Notes under the pieces: generated by a model
The model's input: only the letters and a program-made list of their open reading frames with translations
Told to the model about the DNA's origin: nothing
Databases searched by the model: none
In this document: in pieces, positions 1,581 to 58,190 of the stretch
Layout: the number at the start of each line of letters is the position of its first letter
Numbering within the stretch: position 1 is the stretch's first letter
Source of the DNA: a virus
Length of the DNA: 64,000 nt
Virus record (IMG/VR): IMGVR_UViG_3300045988_168162
Coordinates: 32,001 to 96,000 of that record
Reading direction: 5' to 3' (one strand)
Program-made: the position numbers and the translations under genes

Positions 1581-2190
1581 GAATTGGATTGAAAGTGTTT
1601 TCTTCTTGGCTCCCATTTCTATAGCCAGGATTCCGATAGTGGCGAACTATCCTAGGTGTTGGTTTATCTGCTAATGTTTACAGACTCTATAGCAGACCAC
1701 ATGCGAGTGGTGAAACCTTTGGCACCTGCCGGTTATCTGCAGGCACACGCTTTCAATCTTGGCGGGGCACTATCCCCAGCCTGTTGGTGGGACCTGGACC
1801 TTGCGGCCAGCCCCCGAGTTGTGCGAGACCTAGATCTGAGCGAGGCGAATCCTGCCTTTGCCGTTTGGCATCTCGCGGTAACGGAACCTGAATTCATGCG
1901 GATTTCACTGGGCGATATCTAATAAATAGACACCGAAACCGTTCATCATCCGAAGCAGCTGGATTCCGTTTTGCCCTGATTCCGGCTTTCGGCAGGTGAT
2001 CGGCCTGCTATAGAACCAGGGCAATGGTGCGGAATGAATCTTGACCAGACAGCCCGCGATTGGTATGTATAATGCAATGGGTGTGGCGCATGGTCTGGGT
2101 GACAAATTTGAACACTCGGATATGACCTGAGTGTGGCGCGTGTTGCAAGGGAATTCTCGTGCCTGGAGGCAGCTGCACATTTCGATTATA
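1581..2190 (-). ncRNA. Large ORF-free structured RNA candidate between tRNAs (copy A of the repeated 5' module; ROOL/GOLLD-like context)
   Basis: No credible ORF or SD. Flanked by tRNA genes on the same strand. Begins with the 42-nt module shared with 24105-24146 and 25863-25904. TATAAT lies about 52 nt upstream of the module. Confidence 0.4.
2093..2134 (-). repeat. Conserved RNA module, copy A (hairpin ACACTC-AGGTCATATCC-GAGTGT plus AATTTGTCACCCAGAC)
   Basis: 37/42 identical to copy C. The stem difference A3/T21 versus T3/A21 is compensatory. CCAGAC pairs with GTCTGG at 2045-2050. Confidence 0.8.
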
Positions 2191-6325: not shown

Positions 6326-7792
6326 TTATAATAGGGGAGCATTGTGCTCCTGCATAAAAAGTTCTGCGTTTCGGCGCAGGAGACAGGGATCATTTTGGAA
6401 CTTGCCATCTACCACGCATTGCAGAAGATGGTTAAAGCATTGGCCGAACAAAGGGCCAGGACGATAGCCCATCTCCATAAGATCATGACCATTGATGTGC
6501 AGGTCCTGGATGGAGAGCTTGCGCCCCTCGAAAATTGCGATAGCGAGATACAGGTATGTGATTTCGGCCTTGCGCATAGCGTTCATAGTGCCAAACTTGG
6601 TATAATCGACACCGTGGGCGTAGAGATCAGCAAAACGGACAGCCATAAGCAGCTGGGCATTGACAGGACCAAGAGCGGCCAGCAGACGATTGGCACAGCG
6701 GACGGTGGGTTCAAATTGGCGGTCGTGGTTTTTGATGAGCAGGACGATCCGTTCCCGTTCCGCGTTAGAAAACTTGAGGCGGCGAAGAATGTCATCGGCA
6801 AGTTCGGCACTTTTTTCAGCATGGCCGTAAAAGTGGCCGGTGCCGCCATCATCGACCGTATAGCATACTGGTTTGGCAATATCATGCAAAAGCATCGTTA
6901 TGCAGAGCTCGAACCAGTGAGCGTGGATAGCAGCGGTAAACTCGGGGAGTTTTTGGGTGACGCTCTTCAGTTCCACGACAGACTTTAGAATATGATCTTG
7001 CACGGTGTAGATATGATAGGGACTGTGCTGCTGAAAATCACGACTGAGATAAAGTTCCGGGATAATTTCTTCCAGTACGTCGATATAATCGAAAAGAAGC
7101 AGACTGAAATCATCGTGCTCATAGCTGGAGGTGAAGATTTTGCGGAGTTCGGACTGTACACGTTCGGCGGAAAGACCGACAAGCATCTGAACATTCGCAT
7201 GAATTGCTGCTTCGGTTTGTACATCGATCGTCAAATCATAGCTGACGGCAAAGCGCAGGGCACGTAAGATACGCAGAGGGTCCTCCTGGAAGCGTTTGTT
7301 AGGGTCACCAACGCATTTGATGAAATTGCTGCACATATCCGCATAGCCTTTAAAGGGGTCGACGATCCCAATCGTGTAAGTGCCTTCTTGGGATGCATCA
7401 TCATTCGGTAAAATTCTGCCAGCGATGGCATTCATGGTGAAATCACGGCGGGCAAGATCTTCTGTGATATCATCGACAAACTCGACCGTATCAGGATGGC
7501 GGTGGTCTTTGTAAATGCCGTCTTTACGCATGGTTGTGACTTCGTACTGGCCGTCCGGCATGATAACTGTAACAGTGCCATGCTTGATGCCGGTATCAAT
7601 GGTAGGAGAGAAGAGAGATTTTACCGTGGTTGGGTCGGCCTGGGTGACAACATCATAATCGTGCGGTGTTTTATCGAATAGAATGTCCCGCATACAGCCA
7701 CCAACAAGGTAGGTTTTATAACCGGCACCTTCTAACTGGAGGACAAGGGTAACAAGATCATGCGGCAGGGGGATACCTTGTAGTACAGGCAT
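6326..7792 (-). CDS. cca: CCA-adding tRNA nucleotidyltransferase with C-terminal HD domain
   Basis: LVGGCMRDILF..PHDYDVVT, RKDGIYKDHRHPDTVEF, EDLARRDFTMNAIA (class II head domain). HD motif MLLHDIAKP. Confidence 0.9.
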   Translation of the reverse strand: MPVLQGIPLPHDLVTLVLQLEGAGYKTYLVGGCMRDILFDKTPHDYDVVTQADPTTVKSLFSPTIDTGIKHGTVTVIMPDGQYEVTTMRKDGIYKDHRHPDTVEFVDDITEDLARRDFTMNAIAGRILPNDDASQEGTYTIGIVDPFKGYADMCSNFIKCVGDPNKRFQEDPLRILRALRFAVSYDLTIDVQTEAAIHANVQMLVGLSAERVQSELRKIFTSSYEHDDFSLLLFDYIDVLEEIIPELYLSRDFQQHSPYHIYTVQDHILKSVVELKSVTQKLPEFTAAIHAHWFELCITMLLHDIAKPVCYTVDDGGTGHFYGHAEKSAELADDILRRLKFSNAERERIVLLIKNHDRQFEPTVRCANRLLAALGPVNAQLLMAVRFADLYAHGVDYTKFGTMNAMRKAEITYLYLAIAIFEGRKLSIQDLHINGHDLMEMGYRPGPLFGQCFNHLLQCVVDGKFQNDPCLLRRNAELFMQEHNAPLL

Positions 7793-8798
7793 GGTAGTTT
7801 ACCTCCATAACGAGTTCTTCTACCCGTTTATAATCCGAGGTTTTGGGGAGCATGGTGTTGGCTTTGTCATATTGCAGGCGCTTTTCATACTGATCGATGA
7901 GATCGAAAAACTCCTGGTAGTAAGTGCCGTCCGGCTTTTGGAACTTACCGGCGCGGATCTCCAAGAGGAAATCGCGGTCGTTTTCGCGGTAGGTGTTGAT
8001 CTCGCCTTTTTCAAGAATATCAAAGCACATGAGATAAAGCCAGACCAGGTGCATGGCGTGCTTATTCAGATGCAGATCATCCTTTTTGCTGTTGCGCTTT
8101 CCGAGCTTGGCGTACTGGCCGATGACCGTGCCGAGATCAGAATTCATTTCCTTAAAGCTGCGGAGTGGATAATGTTTAAGGTCGCAGTCAATGAAGATTT
8201 CTGTCTCCATGCCCTCTGTTACGCCTTTGTCAATATATAGGTGAACGGAATCACCAGGGATATCGGCGTGCTGCAAACGGAAGTTTTCAAAGACAGATTT
8301 GCAGGTGCCTAGAATATGGCGCTCTTTTTCATCCTGGTGATAGTGGTCATGTGCCAGGGCATTTTGCAGGCGGCGCAGCTGCTGATTGGCATAACCGCCA
8401 AAAGCGTGGACGGCCGTTTGAGAGAGAAATAGTTTTTTATTTTCAATAAGCATCTGGCCCGCCGGAGTGATGTAAAAATACTGGTCCGGTTTATTGCCGA
8501 GAAGTTCGATCGTGTTGGGATTACAAGAGAGCAGTAGACTGACGAGCTTATTGAAACCGAAGATCGTAGTGTCGGTGCCAGTATCAACACGCTGCTCAAA
8601 ATTAGAGAAACCGAGAATATCCTGCGGGGAGTTCATGGCACAGCCGCGGACATCCACATCCGAACCTTCGACATTGGTGCCATAGGCGTGACTGCCGCCG
8701 AGCGTTAGGAACATAATGTTTTCGCCCAGGTGCGGATCGGTGCGCAAGAAATCATAAGCAGGGGACAAGATCAGGTCATCGAATTCGTTTTGTGTCAT
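7758..8798 (-). CDS. Pol-beta-fold nucleotidyltransferase, RlaP-like (RNA-repair-associated family)
   Basis: N-terminal LTLGGSHAYGTNVEGSDVDVRGC matches the GS-x-YG..SD-x-D signature. Overlaps the cca start by 35 nt. Confidence 0.55.
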   Translation of the reverse strand: MTQNEFDDLILSPAYDFLRTDPHLGENIMFLTLGGSHAYGTNVEGSDVDVRGCAMNSPQDILGFSNFEQRVDTGTDTTIFGFNKLVSLLLSCNPNTIELLGNKPDQYFYITPAGQMLIENKKLFLSQTAVHAFGGYANQQLRRLQNALAHDHYHQDEKERHILGTCKSVFENFRLQHADIPGDSVHLYIDKGVTEGMETEIFIDCDLKHYPLRSFKEMNSDLGTVIGQYAKLGKRNSKKDDLHLNKHAMHLVWLYLMCFDILEKGEINTYRENDRDFLLEIRAGKFQKPDGTYYQEFFDLIDQYEKRLQYDKANTMLPKTSDYKRVEELVMEVNYHACTTRYPPAA

Positions 8799-23362: not shown

Positions 23363-23653
23363 TTAGTATTCGTCCGGGAAGAGGACCGTGGTTACGGAAC
23401 GGTCCCACTCGGTGATGATCCAGATGCGCCAATCGGGATGATCGGCGGGGTTATAGACGCTGAACAGGCGATCATTGCCAGAGGTAAGAGCTTCATTATT
23501 GAGCTGGGCATCCTCGGCACAGCAATCACCCCAGTCAGCGTTTTCGTGGCGGGTGATACACTGATACACATAGGTAAAGAAATTACGGTCATCATTCATC
23601 TTGGCGGCGATTTCATCCGTGACTACAAGAGAGCCAAGCTTGAATTTACTCAT
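23363..23653 (-). CDS. Hypothetical protein (96 aa; ..IWIITEWDRSVTTVLFPDEY)
   Basis: ORF track; ATGA-type overlap with the upstream small ORF. Confidence 0.6.
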   Translation of the reverse strand: MSKFKLGSLVVTDEIAAKMNDDRNFFTYVYQCITRHENADWGDCCAEDAQLNNEALTSGNDRLFSVYNPADHPDWRIWIITEWDRSVTTVLFPDEY

Positions 23654-23817
23654 ACAGAAGCACTTCCTTTCGGGTTGGCCGCGAAGAACTCATCCTCGGG
23701 GCAGAAGGGGCAATACCAGGAACCGCCGCGGTAGAAAGCGCCGGGTGTGTCCGGCAGACATTCGTAACAGACGGTGCCGTCTACAAAAGCAAGGGTGTAG
23801 GTGATGGATTTCATCAT
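23650..23817 (-). CDS. Small zinc-ribbon-like protein (55 aa; CYEC..CPFC)
   Basis: Not in the ORF track. MMKSITYTLAFVDGTVCYECLPDTPGAFYRGGSWYCPFCPEDEFFAANPKGSASV. GAAAGGAAA upstream; its stop overlaps the next ATG. Confidence 0.55.
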   Translation of the reverse strand: MMKSITYTLAFVDGTVCYECLPDTPGAFYRGGSWYCPFCPEDEFFAANPKGSASV

Positions 23818-23845: not shown

Positions 23846-24190
23846 TGTGTGATGTAAGCTGATAAGGTGGCTGCCTGGACCAGGAGGTGGTCCCAACTCG
23901 TTATTCAGAAGCTGCTGCTCAATTTTAGGAAGTCCTGGTACGATTTTCTGGGTACGAAGCACTGTTGATTGGACGTGTAAGTGAGCTAATCGCTATGGAC
24001 TCTGACGCTTTTGCCAGTCGTTAGTTGGCAGTAAACTCTGAATCTTCGCTGAAGAATCACTAGGATCGCGATGGCCATCGGCGACTCGCCGATCGTGGTG
24101 GGTGGACTGGGTAACAAATTCATACTCTCGGATATGACCTGAGAGTTTTTGCCTTGAACTACAAAGCAAAAGTAAACCTTACATAACACA
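23846..24190 (-). ncRNA. Structured RNA, copy B (345 nt, closed by a 13-bp long-range helix)
   Basis: 5' arm TGTGTTATGTAAG (24178-24190) pairs with CTTACATCACACA (23846-23858), 12/13 bp. G then UUUAC follow the 5' arm, as in copy C. Carries the 42-nt module. Confidence 0.5.
24105..24146 (-). repeat. Conserved RNA module, copy B
   Basis: 40/42 identical to copy C. CCAGTC pairs with GACTGG at 24014-24019, so the A-to-T change is compensated. Confidence 0.8.
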
Positions 24191-24213
24191 GTTTATAGAA
24201 TGTAAAAACATTT

Positions 24214-24398: not shown

Positions 24399-25589
24399 TC
24401 AAGCTGCTTTGGGCTTGAGATCGTCAGAGATACAGGTGAGAAGATCGGCACCATATCTGGCGTTGTACTTTTGGATGACACCGGCAATGGTGGCGGGTTC
24501 TACACTAAGGTAGTAGCTGATATTGCCGCGGAACTTTTGGAGATCCTCTTCGTCCCATTTTTTGCCGTTGCGGCGGTCTTTGAAATAGGTTTCGATGGTA
24601 GCTTTAAGGATTTTGTGGTTTCGATAACCAACGGTAATATCGCCATCCTTATTGAGCATCAGACCGAGCATCCAGTTACGACCGGCGCGGGTGCCGAAGT
24701 GGGTCTTTTCGGTATTCAAGGTAAAGGGAGCATCGAGTTCATGAAGCATGGCGATCAGTTCCCGCTCGACCTTGCGGTAGTTGAAGAAGACCCGGCAGGA
24801 GATATGAATATCATCGGCATAGCGGGTGTAACAGATGCGGTCTGTGATGGGCGTGCCATCTGGGTTGACTTTGCCGCTTTGGAACTGGTTGAGCAGGCGG
24901 GCAAACTTATGGTCGAAGGGAATCATCATGACATTGGTGATGAAAGGGGAGAACGGGGTGCCCTGTGGCAGGCCGTTATTGAGAAACGCCAGGCTTAAAG
25001 CGCGGCGAAGCTCCCTGCGGCCGGTGGGGTCTGCCAGGATCAGGTTGAAGGGATAGATCTCTTCCATCTGTTTGAAGACAAAGTGCGGTGTGGTGGATGG
25101 GAAAAAGCCGTGGAAATCATAATGGCAGAAGTACCAGCTGCGGAACCGCTGATGCTTGATAACGGCATCCTTGGTGGAGCGGCCATTGACATAGGCAAAA
25201 GCGCAGGTGTGGTGGTCGGCAAACATCCAGCCGGACATCATATCCTTGAGCTGAGCCAATGCCTTTTTGAGTTCCGGGTGCGGGGCATCAATGGGACGCA
25301 TCTTGCCGCCGGTCTTTTTCGGGATCTCGAAATGATCGTAGAGTTCCCATTTGTTGGGGTAATCGATCAGATCCTTATAGCAGGTATTGAACATCTTGAG
25401 CTGGCTGATCATGGCGTCCAGGCAAGTGATTTTCATAATGCGCTCAGGAACTTTGTCGCATACAACGGTGCGGGTGGAGCCGTGACCGCCGGAACGTAAG
25501 GAATCCAGCGGAATATCGACACCGAGCATAAGTTCCTCGAACGTGATTTGACGAACGGTTTCGGGGGTATTGTAAGTTATGTATACCAT
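24399..25589 (-). CDS. Reverse transcriptase, retron-like (396 aa)
   Basis: FEIPKKTGGKMRPIDAP, GRSTKDAVIKH (NAxxH-like), YDFHGFFPS, LPQGTPFSPFITN, YTRYADDIHIS, RNWMLGLMLN (VTG-like). ATG 25589 follows GAGGT; the ORF-track N-terminal extension covers the structured RNA. Confidence 0.85.
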   Translation of the reverse strand: MVYITYNTPETVRQITFEELMLGVDIPLDSLRSGGHGSTRTVVCDKVPERIMKITCLDAMISQLKMFNTCYKDLIDYPNKWELYDHFEIPKKTGGKMRPIDAPHPELKKALAQLKDMMSGWMFADHHTCAFAYVNGRSTKDAVIKHQRFRSWYFCHYDFHGFFPSTTPHFVFKQMEEIYPFNLILADPTGRRELRRALSLAFLNNGLPQGTPFSPFITNVMMIPFDHKFARLLNQFQSGKVNPDGTPITDRICYTRYADDIHISCRVFFNYRKVERELIAMLHELDAPFTLNTEKTHFGTRAGRNWMLGLMLNKDGDITVGYRNHKILKATIETYFKDRRNGKKWDEEDLQKFRGNISYYLSVEPATIAGVIQKYNARYGADLLTCISDDLKPKAA

Positions 25590-25607
25590 AGTGGTGTACC
25601 TCGATTG

Positions 25608-25944
25608 TGTTTGTGATCTTGAAGGAATGATGCTGATCTTGCGAAGCTGATCAGCTTCCTGGATTAGCTCCATACAGTGGTGGAATTGGCTTAAAACTCC
25701 AATCAGACAACTGACTGATGTCCAATCTGCGGCTGCCAAGTCTATTACATGACCAATCGACATCGATTGCCCGCTAAGTTAGCTTAAAATGCCCTTGATG
25801 TGAGCGGCGGAACTCGGCGATTCTTGTGGCACCCCCAGATGCGCCTGGCGCGTGCCTGCCCGGTCTGGGTAACAAATTCGTACTCTCGGATATGACCTGA
25901 GAGTCGTTGCGATTTACAAAATGCAACGGTAAACATCACAAACA
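25608..25944 (-). ncRNA. Structured RNA, copy C (337 nt) directly upstream of the RT; msr-msd-like candidate
   Basis: Perfect 10-bp closing helix TGTTTGTGAT (25935-25944) with ATCACAAACA (25608-25617). G then UUUAC follow the 5' arm. Contains the 42-nt module and many local hairpins. Confidence 0.55.
25863..25904 (-). repeat. Conserved RNA module, copy C (ACTCTC-AGGTCATATCC-GAGAGT ACGAATTTGTTACCCAGAC)
   Basis: CCCAGA pairs with TCTGGG at 25834-25839. Confidence 0.8.
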
Positions 25945-25993
25945 AATTTAAATTACAAAGTGTATTATACGGACGATATATTACATAGTGATA

Positions 25994-26677
25994 TTACATG
26001 GCCGTGATAGCTCCTTCCGTGTCGAGATTGAAAGGCGCAACCAGGATCAAATCCTTGATCTTGCCATCCGTGACAAACTTTTGGAAGTTGATAACGGTCA
26101 TGGTGGCAGCCATGCGAACCGTGGGCGCTACACCAAGGACCTCGCCACAGGCGGAACGGGGCACCTCAGCGGTCGCTTCCTCGTGGGTGAAGTTCATACT
26201 GTCGAGCAGTGCTTTCTTGGCCTGCGGGTCACGCCAGTCGGCTGCATAAAGCTGGGCATCAAACAATGCCGTGCGGACATCAAACATCGCCTTGATATTG
26301 GCGTTGTACTGATTGCGCTTGACAATGTCGCGCCGGATCGCAATATCATCCACGGCCAGGAACACATAGCCTGCCAGCGGCTCACCATGCCAGCCATCGG
26401 GTTTGACCTTGACGGTTTCATTACAGGTCAGATTGATATTACCAAGAATATCTCGCAAGGCATCGACCTTTTTCATGCCGACATGGTCATCGAAGAACAT
26501 CTGGTTGACGAGGTTTTTCTCCTCGACCTTGTCCATATCCCAAAGGGTGAACTTGGTGAGACCGTAGCGGGCCAGCAGCTCGGCGATGGTAGAACCGACA
26601 GAACCGCAGCCAATAATGTGAATGGGAGCGGTGATCTTGGCGGGGTCGAAAACCTCGCGGCTCTTATTTAAATTCAT
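25994..26677 (-). CDS. ThiF/MoeB/E1-like adenylyltransferase (227 aa), PRTRC-ThiF-like
   Basis: ATG 26677 follows AGGAGG and overlaps the JAB stop by 14 nt. Rossmann motif IHIIGCGSVGSTIAELLARYG; DMDKVEEKNLVNQ corresponds to the ThiF D-x-D-x-V..NL.RQ motif. Confidence 0.75.
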   Translation of the reverse strand: MNLNKSREVFDPAKITAPIHIIGCGSVGSTIAELLARYGLTKFTLWDMDKVEEKNLVNQMFFDDHVGMKKVDALRDILGNINLTCNETVKVKPDGWHGEPLAGYVFLAVDDIAIRRDIVKRNQYNANIKAMFDVRTALFDAQLYAADWRDPQAKKALLDSMNFTHEEATAEVPRSACGEVLGVAPTVRMAATMTVINFQKFVTDGKIKDLILVAPFNLDTEGAITAM

Positions 26678-27296
26678 CGGGGACCTCCTGACCGTAGGTG
26701 TACCAATCGTACTGCTTATAGTGGTTGTACTGGTTGAAATAGATGGGCGGCTGAACGACCGGCAGCGATTCGACCTTGACCATGGTTTTGACTTCATCCA
26801 GGAAGGACGGGTCAAAAGTATCGTAGGTAAGAAGAACTTCGTCCTGTTCACGAATCGTGCCATGATCGTAGATGTGGGCTGTGTAGTAGAGATCCTTGTT
26901 CCAGATCATGAAGATATAGAACTGGTTATCCGGGATGTGGCGTTCCTCCTGGCTTTGGATATCCGTACCGGAGGGGTGCGTGTCCATATAGACGTGGCTG
27001 TGACCGTGGTAGTGCAGGTCATCAAAGTTGGGATGCTCAAAGTACCAGCGGCCATATTCCTCCTGATCGACCACCACCGTAGCAGCGGTGACCGTTTGCG
27101 GATAGACCGTGATATCATAGACCTCCCAGCCATCCTGGATGGGGCGGGTAAGACCATGCCAGCCGATTTCGGTGTTATACTCGTTCAGCAGAGCGAGCTG
27201 TTTGTTCCAGGCATTGGCCGTGAAGTGGATATGAATGGGTTTCTTTGCGGGTGCCTTGACGGCGGGGGCCTTTTCATTCGGGCTCGTTTTGGACAT
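26664..27296 (-). CDS. JAB/MPN+ (JAMM) metallopeptidase-like protein
   Basis: HSHVYMDTHPSGTD fits HxH-x7-S-xx-D, with an upstream Glu in NTEIGWHG. Strong SD GAAAGGAGG. Confidence 0.7.
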   Translation of the reverse strand: MSKTSPNEKAPAVKAPAKKPIHIHFTANAWNKQLALLNEYNTEIGWHGLTRPIQDGWEVYDITVYPQTVTAATVVVDQEEYGRWYFEHPNFDDLHYHGHSHVYMDTHPSGTDIQSQEERHIPDNQFYIFMIWNKDLYYTAHIYDHGTIREQDEVLLTYDTFDPSFLDEVKTMVKVESLPVVQPPIYFNQYNHYKQYDWYTYGQEVPDEFK

Positions 27297-27299
27297 GGC

Positions 27300-28673
27300 T
27301 TACGCCTCCTTTCCGTTCATTTCATCACAGACGATCTGCATGGCTTCCTTGAATGTGATATCGGTGCCATCTTGCGTGCGGATGACCTTGCCACTGCCGA
27401 GAACCAGCTGCTGCGTAACACGACCCATGGCCCAAGTCTCAGACAGGGACACATTGGATGCGCTTTGCTGCGTGATAGCCAGGGCAGCGATATAATCATG
27501 GTTGCGCTCGGCATCTGCAAGATCGCCTGCATAGCCGCCCAGGCAGGTGGCAAAAGCGATATGCGGGTTATTGATATAGTCCGCAGCAATAGGCTCCATG
27601 GGATCATCGGCTTCCACAGCGTGGACAGCGGCATCTCTGTTGATGATGTAAGTGGCGGCCATCTTGATCGTGAACCGATGATCAACAAAGACAGCGCGGT
27701 AGAACGCGGTCATCTGATCGTTATCATACGGGTTATCGATTTCATGGGAGCCGCGGCCGATGCTGGAATAACCATCGAGAACGTCAGGGTAGTTCAGCAC
27801 ATAAGAATCGACCATGTCCTCATCATAACAGGAGAGGGTGGTGAGCACCGTGTACTGGATATAACCACTGCCGATGCCGATATGATCGATACGGAATCCG
27901 CCGCTGCGCAGGTAATCATAGATTTCCTGGCGAAGCTGATTCGTGTCGGTTTTGCGAAGGTAGGCAATCTTTGCGTTGTACTCTGCAATGAGACGAAGAT
28001 GATCGGAGATGCGGCGCTGGTAGCTCTTGATCTCTTGTTCGGCTTCCTCGATATTGCGGGAGGCGGAGCGGATCTGATCAGCCTGTGCGTTGACGGTGAT
28101 CTCCTGGGCGGCAGAACGATACTCGATCATATCGTAAGCGTACTTAGCGATAAAGGAAGCCGTGGCGTCCCAGAAATCTTTGCGCGATGCTGCGTTATCT
28201 TTTTGACTGATCTTGTAGACCAGCTGAAGCAGCGCGTATTCATCGGGCTGAAGCTTCTGTTCACCCTCGAACAGCCAGGGCAGGAGCATGGGGATGGCAC
28301 TAATCACACGAAGCCAGATCGCATGGCGTGGACGTACCGCCTGGTCAACATTCACGACGGCCCTGCGCTTATCGGGCAGGATAAAGACCTTGCTGTGCTC
28401 CGGGGCGATATAGTTTTCAAGCCGGGTCACACTGGTAAGGTTACTGGTAACAGGGAACGGAACCGTCCTGAGATAAAGGAACTCCGCATCCGTATCACCG
28501 TTATGGCCGTTTTCAAGATGAAGCGTTTCCGTTCTGGGGGCAACCACACACATCCAGACGGCCTGGAGGACGAGCAGATCATCACCGCTGACGGCGTAAT
28601 ACTGGTCACTGGTGAACCGCCCCTGCATGGAGCTTTCAAACGCTTTCGAGAGGATTCTTTCGTTGATTTCCAA
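27300..28673 (-). CDS. Large cassette protein of unknown function (457 aa, central coiled coil)
   Basis: TTG start follows AAAGGAGTG. Sits between the small Gly-terminated protein and JAB. Confidence 0.6.
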   Translation of the reverse strand: MEINERILSKAFESSMQGRFTSDQYYAVSGDDLLVLQAVWMCVVAPRTETLHLENGHNGDTDAEFLYLRTVPFPVTSNLTSVTRLENYIAPEHSKVFILPDKRRAVVNVDQAVRPRHAIWLRVISAIPMLLPWLFEGEQKLQPDEYALLQLVYKISQKDNAASRKDFWDATASFIAKYAYDMIEYRSAAQEITVNAQADQIRSASRNIEEAEQEIKSYQRRISDHLRLIAEYNAKIAYLRKTDTNQLRQEIYDYLRSGGFRIDHIGIGSGYIQYTVLTTLSCYDEDMVDSYVLNYPDVLDGYSSIGRGSHEIDNPYDNDQMTAFYRAVFVDHRFTIKMAATYIINRDAAVHAVEADDPMEPIAADYINNPHIAFATCLGGYAGDLADAERNHDYIAALAITQQSASNVSLSETWAMGRVTQQLVLGSGKVIRTQDGTDITFKEAMQIVCDEMNGKEA

Positions 28674-28705
28674 AACGGAAACACTCCTTTCTTTAAGCAG
28701 CGGAC

Positions 28706-28978
28706 TTAGCCGCGGCAGGCGTTATCCTGCTTGGGGATGTTGAGCATGTAGAAGCTGGTGGCGGTGTTGATCTTCTCGAAATTATCGGCGAACCAGCGGA
28801 TGGGCTTGTCCAGGTTTTCCTCGCCCAGAGCGATGCCGTTGAAATTCGTCTGGCCGACATGGTAGTCAACGCCGAACTGATCCAGCAGCTGACGGGGCGT
28901 GGTGGTGTCCACAGAGATGGGGGCGGACTCGTGACGATCGAAAGAAGTGCCGACTTTAACCTTGATGATGCTTTCCAT
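28706..28978 (-). CDS. Small protein ending in Gly (90 aa, ..IPKQDNACRG); ubiquitin-like candidate by context only
   Basis: ATG 28978 follows AAAGGAG. Size, position in an E1/JAB operon and the terminal Gly are the only evidence. Confidence 0.5.
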   Translation of the reverse strand: MESIIKVKVGTSFDRHESAPISVDTTTPRQLLDQFGVDYHVGQTNFNGIALGEENLDKPIRWFADNFEKINTATSFYMLNIPKQDNACRG

Positions 28979-29062
28979 AAAACTTGTCTCCTTTGAAATA
29001 TACATTTATTTTGTGATTTTATACAGTGTTTGTATGCGGGCTTTGGATGTAAAAGAGGGGGA

Positions 29063-29482
29063 TCAGCCCTCTGCGGTGGTGTCCTCGGCGTTGGCTTCAC
29101 CGGTCAGTTCCCGGATGAAGGCGGCCTTGCGATCCTTTTCATTCTGGACAGCGGTGGTGGCGGTGGCCTCGATCTCGTCCAGCTTGGCCTTGGCAGCGCC
29201 GACCTTATCAAAGATCTCGTTCAGCTGCTCATCTGCGGGCTTATTGGTGTCCAGCGTGTAGGTCAGGACGGCCTTGCCATCGCGGGTCTTGTTGGCGAAA
29301 ACGATGCCGTACTGGCTGATGCTGCCCATGGTGCCGCCGGTTTTGACAACGAACTGGACGTCGCCGTCCTTATCCTTGATGGCCAGGGCGTCGGGATTCT
29401 GCTTCTCCAGCAGTTTGATGTCGTCCAGCGACAGGGTGGAGATGAGGTCGAAAGTGGTTGCGTTCAGGGTGATCTTAGACAT
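29063..29482 (-). CDS. Hypothetical protein (139 aa, acidic tail), first gene of the cassette
   Basis: AAAGGAG upstream; ORF track. Confidence 0.6.
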   Translation of the reverse strand: MSKITLNATTFDLISTLSLDDIKLLEKQNPDALAIKDKDGDVQFVVKTGGTMGSISQYGIVFANKTRDGKAVLTYTLDTNKPADEQLNEIFDKVGAAKAKLDEIEATATTAVQNEKDRKAAFIRELTGEANAEDTTAEG

Positions 29483-29547: not shown

Positions 29548-29664
29548 TCAAGACCTTGCGGCCTCGATTTCGTGGTAGGCTTCACGGATGGAATCCGCAG
29601 AGCAAAAGAACTGGCGGTCAAGATAGACTTCATAATGACCGCGGCGGTAATGGATGGTGAACAT
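29548..29664 (-). CDS. Possible micro-ORF (38 aa, MFTIHYRRGHYEVYLDRQFFCSADSIREAYHEIEAARS)
   Basis: GAAAGGAG lies 8 nt upstream. Below the ORF-track cutoff. Confidence 0.35.
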   Translation of the reverse strand: MFTIHYRRGHYEVYLDRQFFCSADSIREAYHEIEAARS

Positions 29665-31958: not shown

Positions 31959-32068
31959 TTCGTGTTCACTCCTTGATTGCTTTATCATAAATTTATTGAT
32001 TGATAGGGTAAAAGAAAAGCACCCTTAGTCCAGGATGCTGGCGGTTGCGACACTGGTCTCGCGGAGCG

Positions 32069-45289: not shown

Positions 45290-46399
45290 TTGAAGGTATA
45301 TAAAGGCTACAAGTTCAAACTTGAGCCTACAGAGGAGCAGAAAATCAAAATCAACAAAACGCTCGGCTGCTGCCGCTTTGTGTATAACTCCATGTTGGAT
45401 AGGCGCATAAAAGTCTATACACGGCGCGGTGAGAGTATAAGCTATATTGATACGCAGAATCTACTTCCTAAGATGAAGCAGTATCTACCTTGGCTTGCCG
45501 AAGTGGACAGTCAAGCGCTCAAATATAGCTGTCGTCAATTAGACGACGCTTATAAAGGGTTCTTTAAAAGTAGAAGAGGCTTTCCAAACTTCAAACGTAA
45601 AAGGGGAGAGGAAAGCTACACAACTACCAGCGCAAAGAATATTAAGATTGATGATAAATACATTCAGCTCCCAACGCTCGGAAAAGTGCGCTATCGCAAG
45701 AGCCGCAACATCGAAGGAAAGATTTGCAAGGCAACAATTCGTCGTTCCGCAAGTGGTAAATACTATGTAAGCATTCTTTGCAAAGTAGAAGTAACACCAC
45801 TTCTTGTTAAAGATACCGTCATCGGTTTAGATGTAGGCATCAAATCTTTTGCTGTTGACAGCAATGGTAACGAGCACCCAAATCATAAATATCTTCAAAA
45901 AGCGGAAGCCAAACTAAAGCGTGAACAGAAAAAGCTGTCACGTAAAAAGAAAGGCTCTGCCAACTGGGAAAAGCAGCGCATCAAGGTAGCTCGCTGCTAT
46001 GAAAAAGTTACCAATAAACGAAAAGATACATTGCACAAGTTGTCATCTACACTAGTGAAAGAAAATCAAATCATTTGTGTAGAAGACCTTAACGTTAAGG
46101 GTATGGTTCGTAATCACAACCTCGCAAAGAGTATTTCCGATGCTGCTTGGGGAGAGTTCTTCCGCCAACTTGAATATAAGGCTAATTGGGCAGGAAGAGT
46201 TATCGTTAAAGTGCCGACCTATTATCCAAGCAGCCAGACTTGCTCTTGCTGTGGATATCAAAACAAAGAAGTCAAAAACCTCAATGTGCGGCATTGGGTC
46301 TGCCCTCAATGTGGTATATCGCACGACAGAGATAAAAATGCTGCAGAAAACATTCTGAAAAAAGGAATGGACATGCTGGCTATGTTAGCTGCCTCATAA
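45290..46399 (+). CDS. tnpB: TnpB RNA-guided nuclease
   Basis: [20 protein letters not shown], RuvC D ([13 protein letters not shown]), E ([11 protein letters not shown]), Zn finger CSCCG..CPQCG, D ([11 protein letters not shown]). TTG start follows AAAGGAGG. Confidence 0.9.
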
Positions 46400-54912: not shown

Positions 54913-56667
54913 ATGGCTCAGAAACGAATGAGTGCAAATGAAGTTGCGAATGACAAAGCCGACCGTGTGATGAATGCGGTGGCAATATGGTGCTCTTACT
55001 ACAGGGCGAATCCGCACAGATTTTGCAAAGACTACCTTAATATAGACCTGCATCCGTTCCAGATGATCCTGATTTATATGATGAATCTGGCAACGAATTT
55101 TTGCTTCACGGGCAGTCGAGGGTTAGGCAAGACTTACCTGACAGCGGTTTTTGTTGTTACGAGGGCAATCCTTTGGCCTAAGACGAAAATTTGTATAGCA
55201 GCAAAGACGCGCGGCCAAGGGATACAAGTTCTTGAAAAGATAACAAAAGAGTTGATGCCAAACTCTGGTCTGTTGCGAGGAGAAATTAAGGATGTAGTAA
55301 TTAACCAAAGTAATGCGCAAATTACGTTCCGTAATGGAAGTTACATAGAAGTTGTTACCGCGAACGATAACTCCCGTGGCCACCGTGCCAATTTATTGGT
55401 ATGCGACGAGTTCCGTATGATCAATAAAGATGTCATCGACCTTGTTTTGAAGAAGTTTTTGACAGTTGCAAGACAGCCTGGATATTTGAAGAAGCCGGAG
55501 TACAAACATCTGATTGAGAGACCAAAGGAAATGTATTTGAGCAGTTCGTGGTTTCAGAGCCATTGGTCATGGCAGCTATGCAAAGACTACTTTGTATCAA
55601 TGCTTGACCCCAATAAAAAATATTTCTGTTTCCGGTTCCCATATCAGATGCCTGTTAAGGAAGGTATGTTGTCAATTGAGCAGGTAGAAGATGAGATGGC
55701 TGAATCCTCGTTCAGTGATATCAAGTTCCGTATGGAAATGGAAGCTATGTTTATTGGGGCTACAGATGGAGGATTGTTCAGTTTCGACGACATCAACAAA
55801 GTTCGCAATTTGAAGAAGCCGTTCTATGCACCCAATGTGATACTTGGCGGCAAAGATTTTGTACCGCCCGCAAAGAAGCCGGGGGAAAAGCGAATCTTGA
55901 CGGCTGATATTGCTTTGATGAGCAGCAAGCACAACGACAATGATGCCACGAGTATTTTCCTGAACAGCCTAGTACCGGATAGTTCTGGGCGTTGTACCAG
56001 CAATATGGTGTATACGGAAAACTGCGAGGGTATCATCACGCAGGATCTGGTGCTTAAACTGCGCCGGTATTTTAAGTGGTTTGACTGCGACTACATTGGC
56101 ATTGATGCCAAGGGCCTTGGTGCCCCCATTATGGATTTGCTGATGCATGAGTGTTATGACCCGGAGACGGGGGAGACTTATCCGCCGCTGAATTGTTGTA
56201 ACAACCCGGACTTTCAGGAACGGTGCCCGGACAAAACTGCGCCAAAGGTGATTTGGGCTATCCTGGGCAGCGCACAGCTGAACAATGATGCTACGATTTC
56301 TTTGCGAAGTGGCATACAGCAGGGAAGAATCCGGTTTTTGGAATCGGAATACGACTGCGAGGACTTGCTGCGCAAGGAGATAAAAGGTTACGACAAGATG
56401 ACGCCGACAGAAAAGACGGCTTTGCAGCTACCTTTTATAAACACGGGGCTGATGGTAAACGAATTGGTGAACCTGGAATATGAGGCCACTAATAACGTGA
56501 TCAAAGTACATGAGAAGCCTGGTGCCCGCAAAGACCGCTACAGCTCGGTTAGTTATAACTACTACATCGCACAGCAAGTAGAACGAAGCATGGCGAAAAA
56601 CTATGCTAAGAGCAAGAAAATTGAAATAAACTTTAGAGCGCCGAATCTGAGGAGGGGTAGCTTATGA
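54913..56667 (+). CDS. terL: Terminase large subunit
   Basis: Walker A GSRGLGKTYL, Walker B LLVCDEF. Size and position, directly before the portal gene, fit. Confidence 0.85.
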   Translation: MAQKRMSANEVANDKADRVMNAVAIWCSYYRANPHRFCKDYLNIDLHPFQMILIYMMNLATNFCFTGSRGLGKTYLTAVFVVTRAILWPKTKICIAAKTRGQGIQVLEKITKELMPNSGLLRGEIKDVVINQSNAQITFRNGSYIEVVTANDNSRGHRANLLVCDEFRMINKDVIDLVLKKFLTVARQPGYLKKPEYKHLIERPKEMYLSSSWFQSHWSWQLCKDYFVSMLDPNKKYFCFRFPYQMPVKEGMLSIEQVEDEMAESSFSDIKFRMEMEAMFIGATDGGLFSFDDINKVRNLKKPFYAPNVILGGKDFVPPAKKPGEKRILTADIALMSSKHNDNDATSIFLNSLVPDSSGRCTSNMVYTENCEGIITQDLVLKLRRYFKWFDCDYIGIDAKGLGAPIMDLLMHECYDPETGETYPPLNCCNNPDFQERCPDKTAPKVIWAILGSAQLNNDATISLRSGIQQGRIRFLESEYDCEDLLRKEIKGYDKMTPTEKTALQLPFINTGLMVNELVNLEYEATNNVIKVHEKPGARKDRYSSVSYNYYIAQQVERSMAKNYAKSKKIEINFRAPNLRRGSL

Positions 56668-58190
56668 CAGATAAGGAACAGCGTCAGGTTGCCGTGATTT
56701 CCCCAGACGGCAAGCGTAATTATGTGCCGGTCTCGGAATTTATGAGCAAGCTGCGCTATGCAAACTTGTCCAACATTAAAGTAAGAGACCTGGAAAACAA
56801 CAAAGATTACAACCCCACATATCGCAAATACACGAAATCACAGATCGTGACCTACCTGAGCAACCCGGCCAGCTATGAAACGCAGCTGCGCCAGATGAGC
56901 CAGTACCTTTTTAATATATCGAACTATTACCGGCGGCTGATCCAGTATTTTGCTAGTATGAGTATGTTCAGCTACATTGTGGTGCCGTATGGTGTTGACT
57001 ACTCCAAGAGCGTGAACGTAAACAAGTTTAAAAAGGGATATTACGGTGTCATTAGCCAGTTGGAACGTATGAATATCCGGCACGAGTTCTCGAAGGTATT
57101 GATGGTTGCATTCCGGGATGATGTGTATTACGGATATGCCTGGGAGACCAATGACAGTTATGCTTTACAGCAGTTGGACCCGGATTATTGTAAGATTTCC
57201 AGCATTGAAGATGGTGTTTACAATTTTGCGTTCAACTTTAGCTATTTTGATGCTAACAGCGAGCGGCTGCCGAATTTCCCGCCGGAATTTACCACGATGT
57301 ATAACGCTTACCAGAAAGACACCAACCTGAAATGGCAGGAGCTTTCCAGTGAGAATTCTGTTTGCATTAAGATCAATGAGCAAACCTATGTGCCGATCCC
57401 GCCCTTTGTGAGTCTGTTTAGTGCATTGGCGGACATTGAAGACTACCGCGCTATCAGCAAAAATGCCAGCGAAGTGAACAACTACAAAGCATTGGCGCTG
57501 GAAATCCCGGTTGATGATGAAGGTACTTTTTTGATCGACTATGATTTGTGCAAGGACTTCTACGATATGCTGTGCAACGTGTTGCCGGAAAATATCGGAG
57601 CCTTTATGAGCCCGATGAAAGTATCCAGCTGGGATTTTGAAAAGAGCGGTGCCGTGAGCGGTAGTGATGATGTTGAGAAGGCTGAAGCGTCCATGTGGAC
57701 GCAAGCTGGCGTAAACAGCATCCTGTTTGGCGGCGGAGATAAGGACTCGGCCACCTCGGTCAAATGGTCCACCATCAACGACCAGATGATCGTGTTTACT
57801 GTGATGCGGCAAATTGAACGCTGGATCAACCGCAAATTGAAGAGTGTTTCTACGGCATATAAGTTTAAGGTAAATATCTTAGATGTTACATATTTTAACC
57901 GTGACGAGATGCATGACCGCTATATTAAGGACGGCCAGTATGGATTGCCTGTCCGCGCTGCTATTATGGCGACCGGCGGCTATACGCCCAGTGATGTAGA
58001 AAACCTGATGTATTTGGAAAACACGATTTTGGACTTGAGTTCCAAGGAAGTGCCGCTGAAAAGCTCCAATACGCAGACTGTAGATAACGGTGACGGCGGA
58101 CGGCCTACCAATGAGAGCCAGGGGAAAGACCTGAGCGATGCGGGGGCTGTCACACAGAAGAATGACTCCAACGCGAACTCGGAGGGCTAA
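56664..58190 (+). CDS. Portal protein
   Basis: 508 aa. ATGA overlap with terL; position in the head module. Confidence 0.7.
   Translation: MTDKEQRQVAVISPDGKRNYVPVSEFMSKLRYANLSNIKVRDLENNKDYNPTYRKYTKSQIVTYLSNPASYETQLRQMSQYLFNISNYYRRLIQYFASMSMFSYIVVPYGVDYSKSVNVNKFKKGYYGVISQLERMNIRHEFSKVLMVAFRDDVYYGYAWETNDSYALQQLDPDYCKISSIEDGVYNFAFNFSYFDANSERLPNFPPEFTTMYNAYQKDTNLKWQELSSENSVCIKINEQTYVPIPPFVSLFSALADIEDYRAISKNASEVNNYKALALEIPVDDEGTFLIDYDLCKDFYDMLCNVLPENIGAFMSPMKVSSWDFEKSGAVSGSDDVEKAEASMWTQAGVNSILFGGGDKDSATSVKWSTINDQMIVFTVMRQIERWINRKLKSVSTAYKFKVNILDVTYFNRDEMHDRYIKDGQYGLPVRAAIMATGGYTPSDVENLMYLENTILDLSSKEVPLKSSNTQTVDNGDGGRPTNESQGKDLSDAGAVTQKNDSNANSEG

Follow-up and report, generated by a model that had tools for sequence, protein, structure and literature searches.

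The window analysed here, 64,000 nucleotides (nt) of the virus record IMGVR_UViG_3300045988_168162 (positions 32,001 to 96,000), contains an operon in which five co-directional genes (g1 to g5), among them those for a candidate carrier protein, a JAMM/JAB metallopeptidase and a minimal ThiF/E1 enzyme, are followed by a retron-like non-coding RNA (ncRNA) and a retron-type reverse transcriptase (RT). The operon belongs to temperate phages of gut Clostridia, where its order is g0-g1-g2-g3-g4-g5-ncRNA-RT, g0 being a small gene at the upstream end. We favour, if modestly, the reading that in these phages a minimal E1/JAB module for activating or conjugating a carrier is coupled to a retron-type RT. 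Its features in the window are the following (lengths of proteins in amino acids, aa).

29548..29664, minus strand: g0, a 38-aa protein, MFTIHYRRGHYEVYLDRQFFCSADSIREAYHEIEAARS
29063..29482, minus strand: g1, 139 aa, with an acidic C-terminal tail
28706..28978, minus strand: g2, the 90-aa candidate carrier, with the terminus NACRG
27300..28673, minus strand: g3, 457 aa, with the start codon TTG
26664..27296, minus strand: g4, a 210-aa JAMM/JAB metallopeptidase containing HSHVYMDTHPSGTD
25994..26677, minus strand: g5, a 227-aa minimal ThiF/E1 containing IIGCGSVGST
25595..25957, minus strand: retron-like ncRNA 1, with paired arms and two conserved hairpins
24399..25589, minus strand: retron-type RT, 396 aa from MVYITYN
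23846..24191, minus strand: possible second ncRNA, a copy of the element with its own inverted repeat, 3′ of the RT

Linkage of the cassette to a retron-type reverse transcriptase

The distribution of the operon was followed through its ThiF gene. Family ThiF proteins are encoded on 246 IMG/VR contigs, from which 80 loci, belonging to at least six clades, were fetched and assessed. Among GTDB species representatives, alignment of ThiF yielded 47 metagenome-assembled genomes (MAGs), 41 of them with enough downstream sequence. Our results show that an RT homologue lies on the same strand 280-400 nt downstream of ThiF in 79 of the 80 IMG/VR loci, and within 2.5 kb downstream in 37 of the 41 MAG loci; in three further MAG loci the RT is 2.2-6 kb away. 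The linkage persists as ThiF identity ranges from 47 to 100% and g3 identity falls to 22%, while other neighbours change. The initial annotation had pointed to the RT next to the cassette, and would have counted itself refuted had the two never co-occurred elsewhere; these counts decisively contradict that possibility and make the RT a meaningful neighbour. The MAGs come from human, rabbit, horse, deer and termite guts and are mostly Lachnospiraceae, Oscillospiraceae, Acutalibacteraceae, Ruminococcus and Defluviitaleaceae.

All five open reading frames (ORFs) that the initial annotation had described as a co-directional cassette were found on the minus strand at 25994-29482. Its suggestion of translational coupling holds for g3/g4, which are separated by a 3-nt spacer, and for g4/g5, which overlap by 14 nt, but not for g1-g2 and g2-g3, where the intergenic gaps are 84 and 32 nt. 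The start of g2 is an inner Met, as in its orthologues. The boundaries of the conserved unit have to be widened, as it also takes in the 38-aa gene upstream and the ncRNA and RT downstream. Since the gene set is kept in more than 120 independent loci, with g3 identity down to 22-35%, these ORFs are not the product of chance; the same five genes occur in the same order in lineages whose g3 is only 22-44% identical. The phage origin proposed for the cassette is borne out by a terminase large subunit (54913-56667) and a portal (56664-58190) in the window and by relatives that are IMG/VR contigs of 70-150 kb. In orthologous loci an integrase is found 8-10 kb from the cassette.

The spacer between ThiF and RT measures 404 nt in the window, and the retron-like ncRNA element lies 60 nt after ThiF. 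This ncRNA opens with a 5′ arm (25957-25932), which is followed by a G and is complementary to a 3′ arm (25620-25595) shortly before the RT start; two conserved hairpins and a conserved tail (together the element, 25862-25934) are followed by a variable structured region. In the second hairpin 91% of the cells are paired and 3 of the 7 pairs have changed on both sides, while slid-register controls collapse. The ncRNAs are about 280-360 nt long and their arms stand at constant positions, the 3′ arm preceding the RT start by 15-27 nt, with sequences that vary by clade (T-rich/A-rich in the window, A-rich/T-rich in locus L018; individual loci are cited by such handles). The minimum free energy fold of the window ncRNA closes both arms (z = -3.4). 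Covariance-model matches were obtained directly after ThiF in most lineages searched, the element starting 27-120 nt past the ThiF stop. They include the RT-less loci L003, L005, L007 and L053, as well as L015, whose contig ends before a possible RT. Three IMG/VR clades gave no match to the model at E≤0.05, and no Rfam family matched in the part of the window from 23 to 31 kb.

The RT itself carries the YADD motif and matches the NCBIfam model for St85-family retron RTs over its full length (1.8e-50, 171.9 bits, below the cut-off of 235), as well as the PADLOC model RT_II-A (3.9e-45). Its 454-aa ORF (24399-25763) is over-extended into the ncRNA, and the start used by orthologues, MVYITYN, gives the protein of 396 aa. 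Judged by these sequence features, the ncRNA and the RT can together be described as a retron-like module.

A second copy of the element (24104-24177, 67 bits with the covariance model) lies downstream of the RT, which in the window is therefore bracketed by two retron-like RNA loci. The two copies share a 49-nt direct repeat, 92% identical. The arms flanking the second copy, read from the sequence, are CTGTGTTATGTAAG and CTTACATCACACA, and its inverted repeat ends just before the ribosome-binding site of a 55-aa gene (23650-23817). Second and third copies are a property of some clades only, being found in the L031 clade and not in the L067 clade. The third copy of the window (2092-2156, minus strand, 42.5 bits) may be another RT template RNA. 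It sits among three clustered minus-strand tRNA genes (Met 1240-1317, Pro 1410-1485, Gly 2322-2396), about 280 nt upstream of a match to the Rfam DUF3800-XI RNA (1765-1814; 44.3 bits, gathering score 37.8), in a region (970-2840) where no convincing ORF was found. DUF3800 proteins are retron type VII effectors.

The element copies also bear on a different explanation of the linkage, namely that the cassette is a stand-alone conjugation system and the RT a separate, repeat-flanked insertion that merely became its neighbour in the early region of one phage lineage. Direct copies of the hairpin element do flank the RT in some clades. Indeed, when L003/L005 are compared with L004, and L053 with L031, it is exactly the segment between the two direct copies that is missing, so that the RT is gone and the five genes are intact. 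The RT has likewise been lost and the cassette retained in L124/L125, a different gene occupies the RT position in L007, and all loci come from related phages. (L003 has, in addition, an unrelated RT of 444 aa 2.5 kb further on.) The precision of the missing segment makes the RT-less exceptions look like secondary losses, and chance neighbourhood fits poorly with an RT retained at the frequencies given above despite such divergence of ThiF and g3, or with an element that keeps its place after the ThiF stop even in RT-less lineages. We thus consider independent modules unlikely, and keep them in view because the cassette persists after loss of the RT.

Proteins encoded by the cassette

The description of g5 as a minimal ThiF/E1 was upheld. 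The protein matches Pfam ThiF (PF00899) at 1.4e-20 (73.9 bits, cut-off 28.1) and the NCBIfam ThiF model PRK08644 at 7e-20, with the GxGxxG motif and the Mg-binding Asp kept, and its relatives in a sequence search of the PDB are Uba5, TcdA, MccB and MoeB. Family residues were judged by aligning eight members with E. coli MoeB and a PRTRC ThiF. Invariant in the family are GxGxxG (G23/G25/G28), D47, K70 (MoeB K86), D110 (MoeB D130), R115 and a crossover-loop cysteine, C177, at the position of MoeB C187; the CxxC zinc motifs are absent by the MoeB alignment. The adenylation residues on which the initial annotation had made the E1 assignment depend are thus mostly kept (D47, K70, D110 and C177), with one anomaly, at the position of MoeB R73, that is weighed below. 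By sequence comparison, the membership of g5 in the ThiF/E1 family is solid.

For g4, the JAMM peptidase assignment is sustained by a zinc site that is invariant in six lineages (E43, H99-S-H101, S109 and D112, that is, E...HxH-x7-S-xx-D). Matches to models and structures are weak, and all of them, in both kinds of search, are JAB/JAMM proteins: PADLOC JAB at 2.6e-4 over nearly the full model length, Pfam Prok-JAB at 0.0059 for the L007 orthologue, and, at the top of a PDB profile search, Rpn11 and archaeal JAMM1, which align on the motif with non-significant E values of 0.17-1.8. The C-terminus of g4 (26664-26760) is a Tyr-rich low-complexity tail, YFNQYNHYKQYDWYTYG. The tails of orthologues are variable and rich in Tyr, Gly and Ser, with SYGGSSYNGSSYGG repeats in the forms of 300 aa (L014 8829-9770; L018 5138-6049).

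The candidate carrier g2 belongs to a family of 351 clusters without a Pfam domain. Its orthologues measure 75-90 aa and are conserved along their whole length. Near the C-terminus, 118 of the 120 best clusters have K-x-[DE]-N-A, and K83, N86 and A87 are invariant in 67 sequences. The number of residues that come after [DE]-N-A is variable: none in 61 clusters, one in 35, two in 5, three in 16 and eight in 1. In the window this tail is CRG. The initial annotation had read the final Gly as a ubiquitin-like hallmark, which does not hold: the conserved end is Ala, and the Gly is incidental, as it closes a tail that is not conserved. Short variable extensions beyond a conserved end suggest, at the level of sequence, a processed carrier precursor, and a variable tail past that end would be an obvious job for a JAMM peptidase.

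As a proxy for the fold of g2, the 67 members were scanned against Pfam at a lenient threshold (E≤10). The most frequent weak matches, none of them significant, were to DUF2604 (14 members), TUG-UBL1 (6) and RA (5). Of these, TUG-UBL1 and RA have a ubiquitin-like fold, and DUF2604 belongs to the Pfam ubiquitin clan; a search of the literature on DUF2604 found nothing relevant. The same lenient scan applied to g3 for comparison gave coiled-coil noise only. These weak matches point to a ubiquitin-like (beta-grasp) fold of the candidate carrier, and are suggestive of it rather than proof.

The large protein g3 is the member of a large family with a confidently modelled fold that has no match in the PDB. 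A search for close relatives returned 50 clusters, and among 1.84 billion representatives a profile search identified 1225 at E≤1e-3, of which 845 at E≤1e-10, mostly of 470-490 aa. Neither this family nor ten of its distant relatives matched Pfam or NCBIfam, and g3 had no family in PHROG or PADLOC; a scan of GTDB genomes with g3 patterns gave no match either. With an alignment of 68 sequences the AlphaFold2 model of g3 reaches a mean confidence (pLDDT) of 91.4; such an alignment was needed, five sequences alone giving a poor model (59.9). In the predicted structure, alpha/beta domains at the N- and C-termini flank a helical region that includes a helix of about 60 residues. Foldseek found nothing better than E=0.65 among the listed PDB matches, and its sole match in BFVD was one uncharacterised Siphoviridae protein. 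A PDB profile search with g3 yielded coiled-coil noise only.

Besides Met1, the only invariant residue of g3 is Cys377, in the motif Y-x-(P/N)-N-P-H-I-x4-C-L-G. When g3 was aligned with UBE2D2 by hhalign, this motif fell on the YHPN-x7-CL active site with the same spacing between Asn and Cys, at a probability of 0.1%, which is not significant. Cys377 as an E2-like acceptor cysteine is hence a motif-level lead only. Whether the 457-aa protein is E2-like had been raised at the outset, with structure prediction as the means to decide; the model gave no UBC-like match. We rejected g3 as an E2 on the grounds that Foldseek listed no UBC-like structure among its matches in the PDB or BFVD, that the strand order is unlike that of UBC and that the consensus of its weak Pfam matches is noise.

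The remaining two proteins are less informative. The g1 family comprises 70 clusters without an informative Pfam domain and is kept at the same position in all lineages; one member of 232 aa has ABC-transporter domains and is probably a chimera. No similarity of g1 to PDB entries or to PRTRC_E was detected, and PDB searches with the profiles of g1, g2 and g4 gave nothing significant. The order of g1 and g2 is reversed in some MAG lineages (L115, L124, L125, L146). Directly upstream of g1, a g0-type ORF (38-41 aa, with GHYE and SAD(T/S)xxEA) occurs in L001, L003/L004, L007, L012, L018 and L023. The gene is conserved in most lineages and has no Pfam match.

Proposed mechanism and alternative chemistries

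In the mechanism that we propose, g4 would remove the short variable tail of g2 (CRG in the window) and expose a K-x-D-N-A carboxylate, which g5 would adenylate with ATP; g5 may then hold the carrier on Cys177 as a thioester. The activated carrier would be transferred to Cys377 in g3, or without an intermediate to an amine on the target, as in the archaeal SAMP and Thermus TtuB systems, which work with an E1 only and no E2. The peptidase g4 could also reverse the conjugation. The RT, with a product of the multicopy single-stranded DNA (msDNA) type, would be the sensor, the regulator or the target of conjugation, a coupling that would resemble both retron defence (RT-msDNA plus effector) and the cyclic-oligonucleotide-based antiphage system CBASS (Cap2/Cap3 acting on the cyclase). 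We infer every chemical step in this scheme, and likewise that g2 adopts a beta-grasp fold, which part g3 plays, that the RT is coupled to the cassette and that the system serves defence (superinfection exclusion) or counter-defence. The operon is embedded in a long co-directional run of small early-type genes, a setting that fits defence of the lysogen and counter-defence alike.

A bolder form of this proposal, which we regard as possible but short of probable, is that the operon represents a new retron-type class. Its accessory would be a phage-carried ubiquitin-like (Ubl) conjugation system composed of a processed carrier with a DNA end (Asp-Asn-Ala), an E1, a JAMM peptidase and g3 as an E2-like acceptor, and the RT product would trigger or receive conjugation, for example if the carrier became attached to the RT, msDNA-bound proteins or proteins of a rival phage.

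Several observations weigh against a conjugation module coupled to the RT. The position of MoeB R73 is Asn in all eight aligned members of the g5 family, whereas MoeB and the PRTRC ThiF retain Arg, and the N-terminal Arg is not conserved either, so that canonical adenylation is not assured. The C-terminus of g2 is Ala after Asp-Asn and not Gly-Gly, and g2 has no significant match to any Ubl family or PDB entry by Pfam, profile searches or hhalign. No protein of the cassette matches UQ_con or Prok-E2, that is, no E2 was found, and the model of g3 lacks a UBC-like fold by Foldseek, with a strand order that differs from UBC. Regarding the RT, the length of the ncRNA arms does not exceed that of shuffles (9.0 vs 8.3 +/- 1.3 nt), and because this test was not significant the retron call rests on position, arm covariation and RT family. 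Furthermore, the losses of the RT from loci with an intact cassette imply that the cassette does not strictly need it, and since all relatives are related phages, inherited synteny may account for part of the adjacency.

The main chemical alternative is a sulfur carrier. Here g2 would receive a thiocarboxylate of the ThiS/MoaD type through g5 after trimming by g4, and the Cys of g3 would perhaps thiolate tRNA, msDNA, phage DNA or a small molecule. An E1, a carrier and a JAMM peptidase without an E2 are indeed the composition of CysO/MoeZ/Mec+ and QbsE/QbsC/QbsD, in which Mec+ acts on CysO and QbsD trims QbsE. The best NCBIfam matches of g5 are ThiS adenylyltransferases, the variable tail past the conserved end of g2 suggests trimming, and tRNA genes and tRNA enzymes are plentiful in the phages. 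Against this reading, no rhodanese, cysteine desulfurase or sulfur-inserting enzyme was recognised in or beside the cassette, g2 ends in D-N-A and not in G-G, and the constant partner is an RT and not a biosynthetic enzyme. Weakened by the lack of a sulfur-transfer partner, this alternative appears rather improbable to us.

A peptide product of the microcin C or pantocin type was also considered, in which g5 (compare MccB and PaaA) would modify g2 at its C-terminal Asn/Ala and a small bioactive C-terminal fragment would be freed by the JAMM peptidase. MccB and PaaA are among the PDB sequence matches of g5, and an invariant Asn stands next to the C-terminus of g2. Yet the MccB matches are weaker than those to Uba5 and ThiF, g2 is a protein of 75-90 aa conserved throughout and not a short leader-core peptide, and no exporter or immunity gene was found. 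We give this possibility very little credence.

Some observations on the surroundings of the operon may be recorded here. About 140 nt upstream of g0 there is a sigma-70-like site (29832-29804, minus strand) with TTGACA, a 17-nt spacer, TATCCT and an upstream TG; as the promoter scan returned fewer sites than expected by chance, this possible operon promoter is a lead only. The window also encodes tRNA nucleotidyltransferase-like proteins (6326-7792 and 7758-8798), and the phage genome contains a transposase of 369 aa (45290-46399, plus strand; phrog_506, 1.3e-135). Related phages have a tmRNA, a RAGATH-36 RNA and arrays of up to 8 tRNA genes near the cassette (L023 84-469; L019 1569-1713; many loci). 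In L019-L022 a 273-aa gene lies between ThiF and the ncRNA (e.g. L020 6517-7228; L022 14046-), and a second g1-g2 pair, with an identical g2 product, follows the RT and two tRNA genes. Among known phages, one unannotated faecal phage record was matched by g3 in tblastn, and the 6-kb region had no megablast match in INPHARED.

Comparison with known systems

The initial annotation had likened the cassette to Bil and to CBASS Cap2/Cap3, which proves right for the pairing of E1 and JAB only. Type II CBASS (with Cap2, an E1-E2 fusion, and Cap3, a JAB) and Bil (BilABCD) share with the phage cassette an E1 and a JAB, which in these phage-host conflict systems act together on a protein C-terminus. Unlike them, the cassette has no E2 domain, CD-NTase or Bil-type Ubl, and it is encoded by a phage and not in a host defence island. 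PADLOC and NCBIfam scans of g1-g4 detected no CD-NTase, E2 or Bil component; g5 matches the E1-E2 models of PADLOC and the 6A-MBL cap2_3 model of NCBIfam, in the adenylation (E1) core only.

Similar in composition are the SAMP/UbaA/HvJAMM1 system of archaea and TtuB/TtuC of Thermus, where a small carrier is likewise combined with a minimal MoeB/ThiF-type E1 and a JAMM peptidase and there is no recognisable E2 or E3. Their carriers have a Gly-Gly end and also supply sulfur for tRNA thiolation and molybdenum cofactor synthesis, whereas the phage carrier ends in D-N-A plus a variable tail and is accompanied by three extra conserved proteins and an RT. In CysO/MoeZ/Mec+ and QbsE/QbsC/QbsD, the C-terminus of a ThiS-like carrier, which is activated by an E1-like enzyme, is the substrate of a JAMM peptidase, as proposed for g2 and g4; QbsD removes residues past the activated end of QbsE, and the variable tails of g2 suggest the same for the phage protein. 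The cassette differs from these pathways in having no rhodanese domain and no biosynthetic partner, and in its phage setting and its link to an RT.

With retrons, the St85 family and type II-A RTs being the closest, the operon shares YADD, full-length similarity of its RT to retron RT models, a retron-like upstream ncRNA with flanking inverted arms, a G after the 5′ arm and conserved hairpins, and adjacent accessory genes. It departs from them in an RT score of 172 bits, below the family cut-off of 235, a long ncRNA, two or three copies of the element in some clades and an accessory set of E1, JAMM and carrier. To our knowledge this accessory set is not among the published retron types. In the literature searched, no paper joins a retron with ThiF/JAB or with ubiquitin-like adenylation, and nothing relevant on phage-encoded Ubl systems was found.

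The components are of known kinds (E1, JAMM, retron-type RT). What Pfam, NCBIfam, PHROGs and PADLOC do not cover is their combination, the non-Gly end of the carrier and the families of g0, g1 and g3, and the literature searched contains no description of these either. Retron-type RTs and bacterial ubiquitin-like conjugation (CBASS Cap2/Cap3, Bil, Bub), both actively studied in phage-host conflict and so far seen separately, are here joined in one conserved operon, and a common one, given its 246 IMG/VR contigs, 47 species-level gut MAGs (mostly Clostridia) and 1225 representatives of the g3 family. It would offer for study a new effector logic for retron-like RTs, a putative E1 substrate that ends in Asp-Asn-Ala and not in Gly-Gly, and a large family with a confidently predicted, unmatched fold and a single invariant Cys.

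Finally, the composition and order of the genes had been taken at first to recall PRTRC, and we compared them with a real PRTRC cassette, that of the Azotobacter chroococcum plasmids pAcX50e/f. There the order is ParB, an acidic-tailed protein of 150 aa, protein C of 70 aa, a protein of about 480 aa, one of 237 aa (protein B) and ThiF; protein C is a Pfam Prok_Ub (6.5e-16) and protein B a Prok-E2_D E2 (4e-20). PRTRC (TIGR03734-03742) and the phage cassette thus have in common a mobile element, a ThiF in last place and the order of gene sizes (about 140 aa and acidic-tailed, small, about 460-480 aa, about 210-240 aa, ThiF), and g5 gives a weak match to PRTRC_ThiF (TIGR03736; 7.9e-5, 22.1 bits), far under the cut-off of 144.75 and far below the generic ThiF models. 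Outside ThiF there is no similarity. The hidden Markov model search that had been suggested gave no PRTRC_A/B/C/E/F match for g1-g4, and for PRTRC E and F there was no NCBIfam match for g1, g3 or the ten distant relatives of g3, with hhalign against the Azotobacter 150-aa and 480-aa proteins negative. Prok_Ub was not matched by g2 or 66 relatives even at E≤10, hhalign of g2 with PRTRC C remained at E 0.026-0.09 with a probability below 2%, and that of g4 with PRTRC B was negative. PRTRC ThiF also retains the Arg that the g5 family has replaced by Asn. The absence of a nearby ParB noted at the outset was confirmed, with none within 10 kb in L001, L003, L007 and L012 and no Pfam family of any kind in the ten ORFs flanking the cassette in the window; in Azotobacter, ParB is directly upstream. 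Where PRTRC has its E2 before ThiF, the phage cassette has a JAMM peptidase, and it has an RT and an ncRNA attached. Membership in PRTRC, the relationship first suggested, is accordingly most improbable. By its sequences the phage cassette is at most an architectural analogue, but the long-unexplained layout of PRTRC now has an architectural parallel in phages, which may help to approach PRTRC itself.

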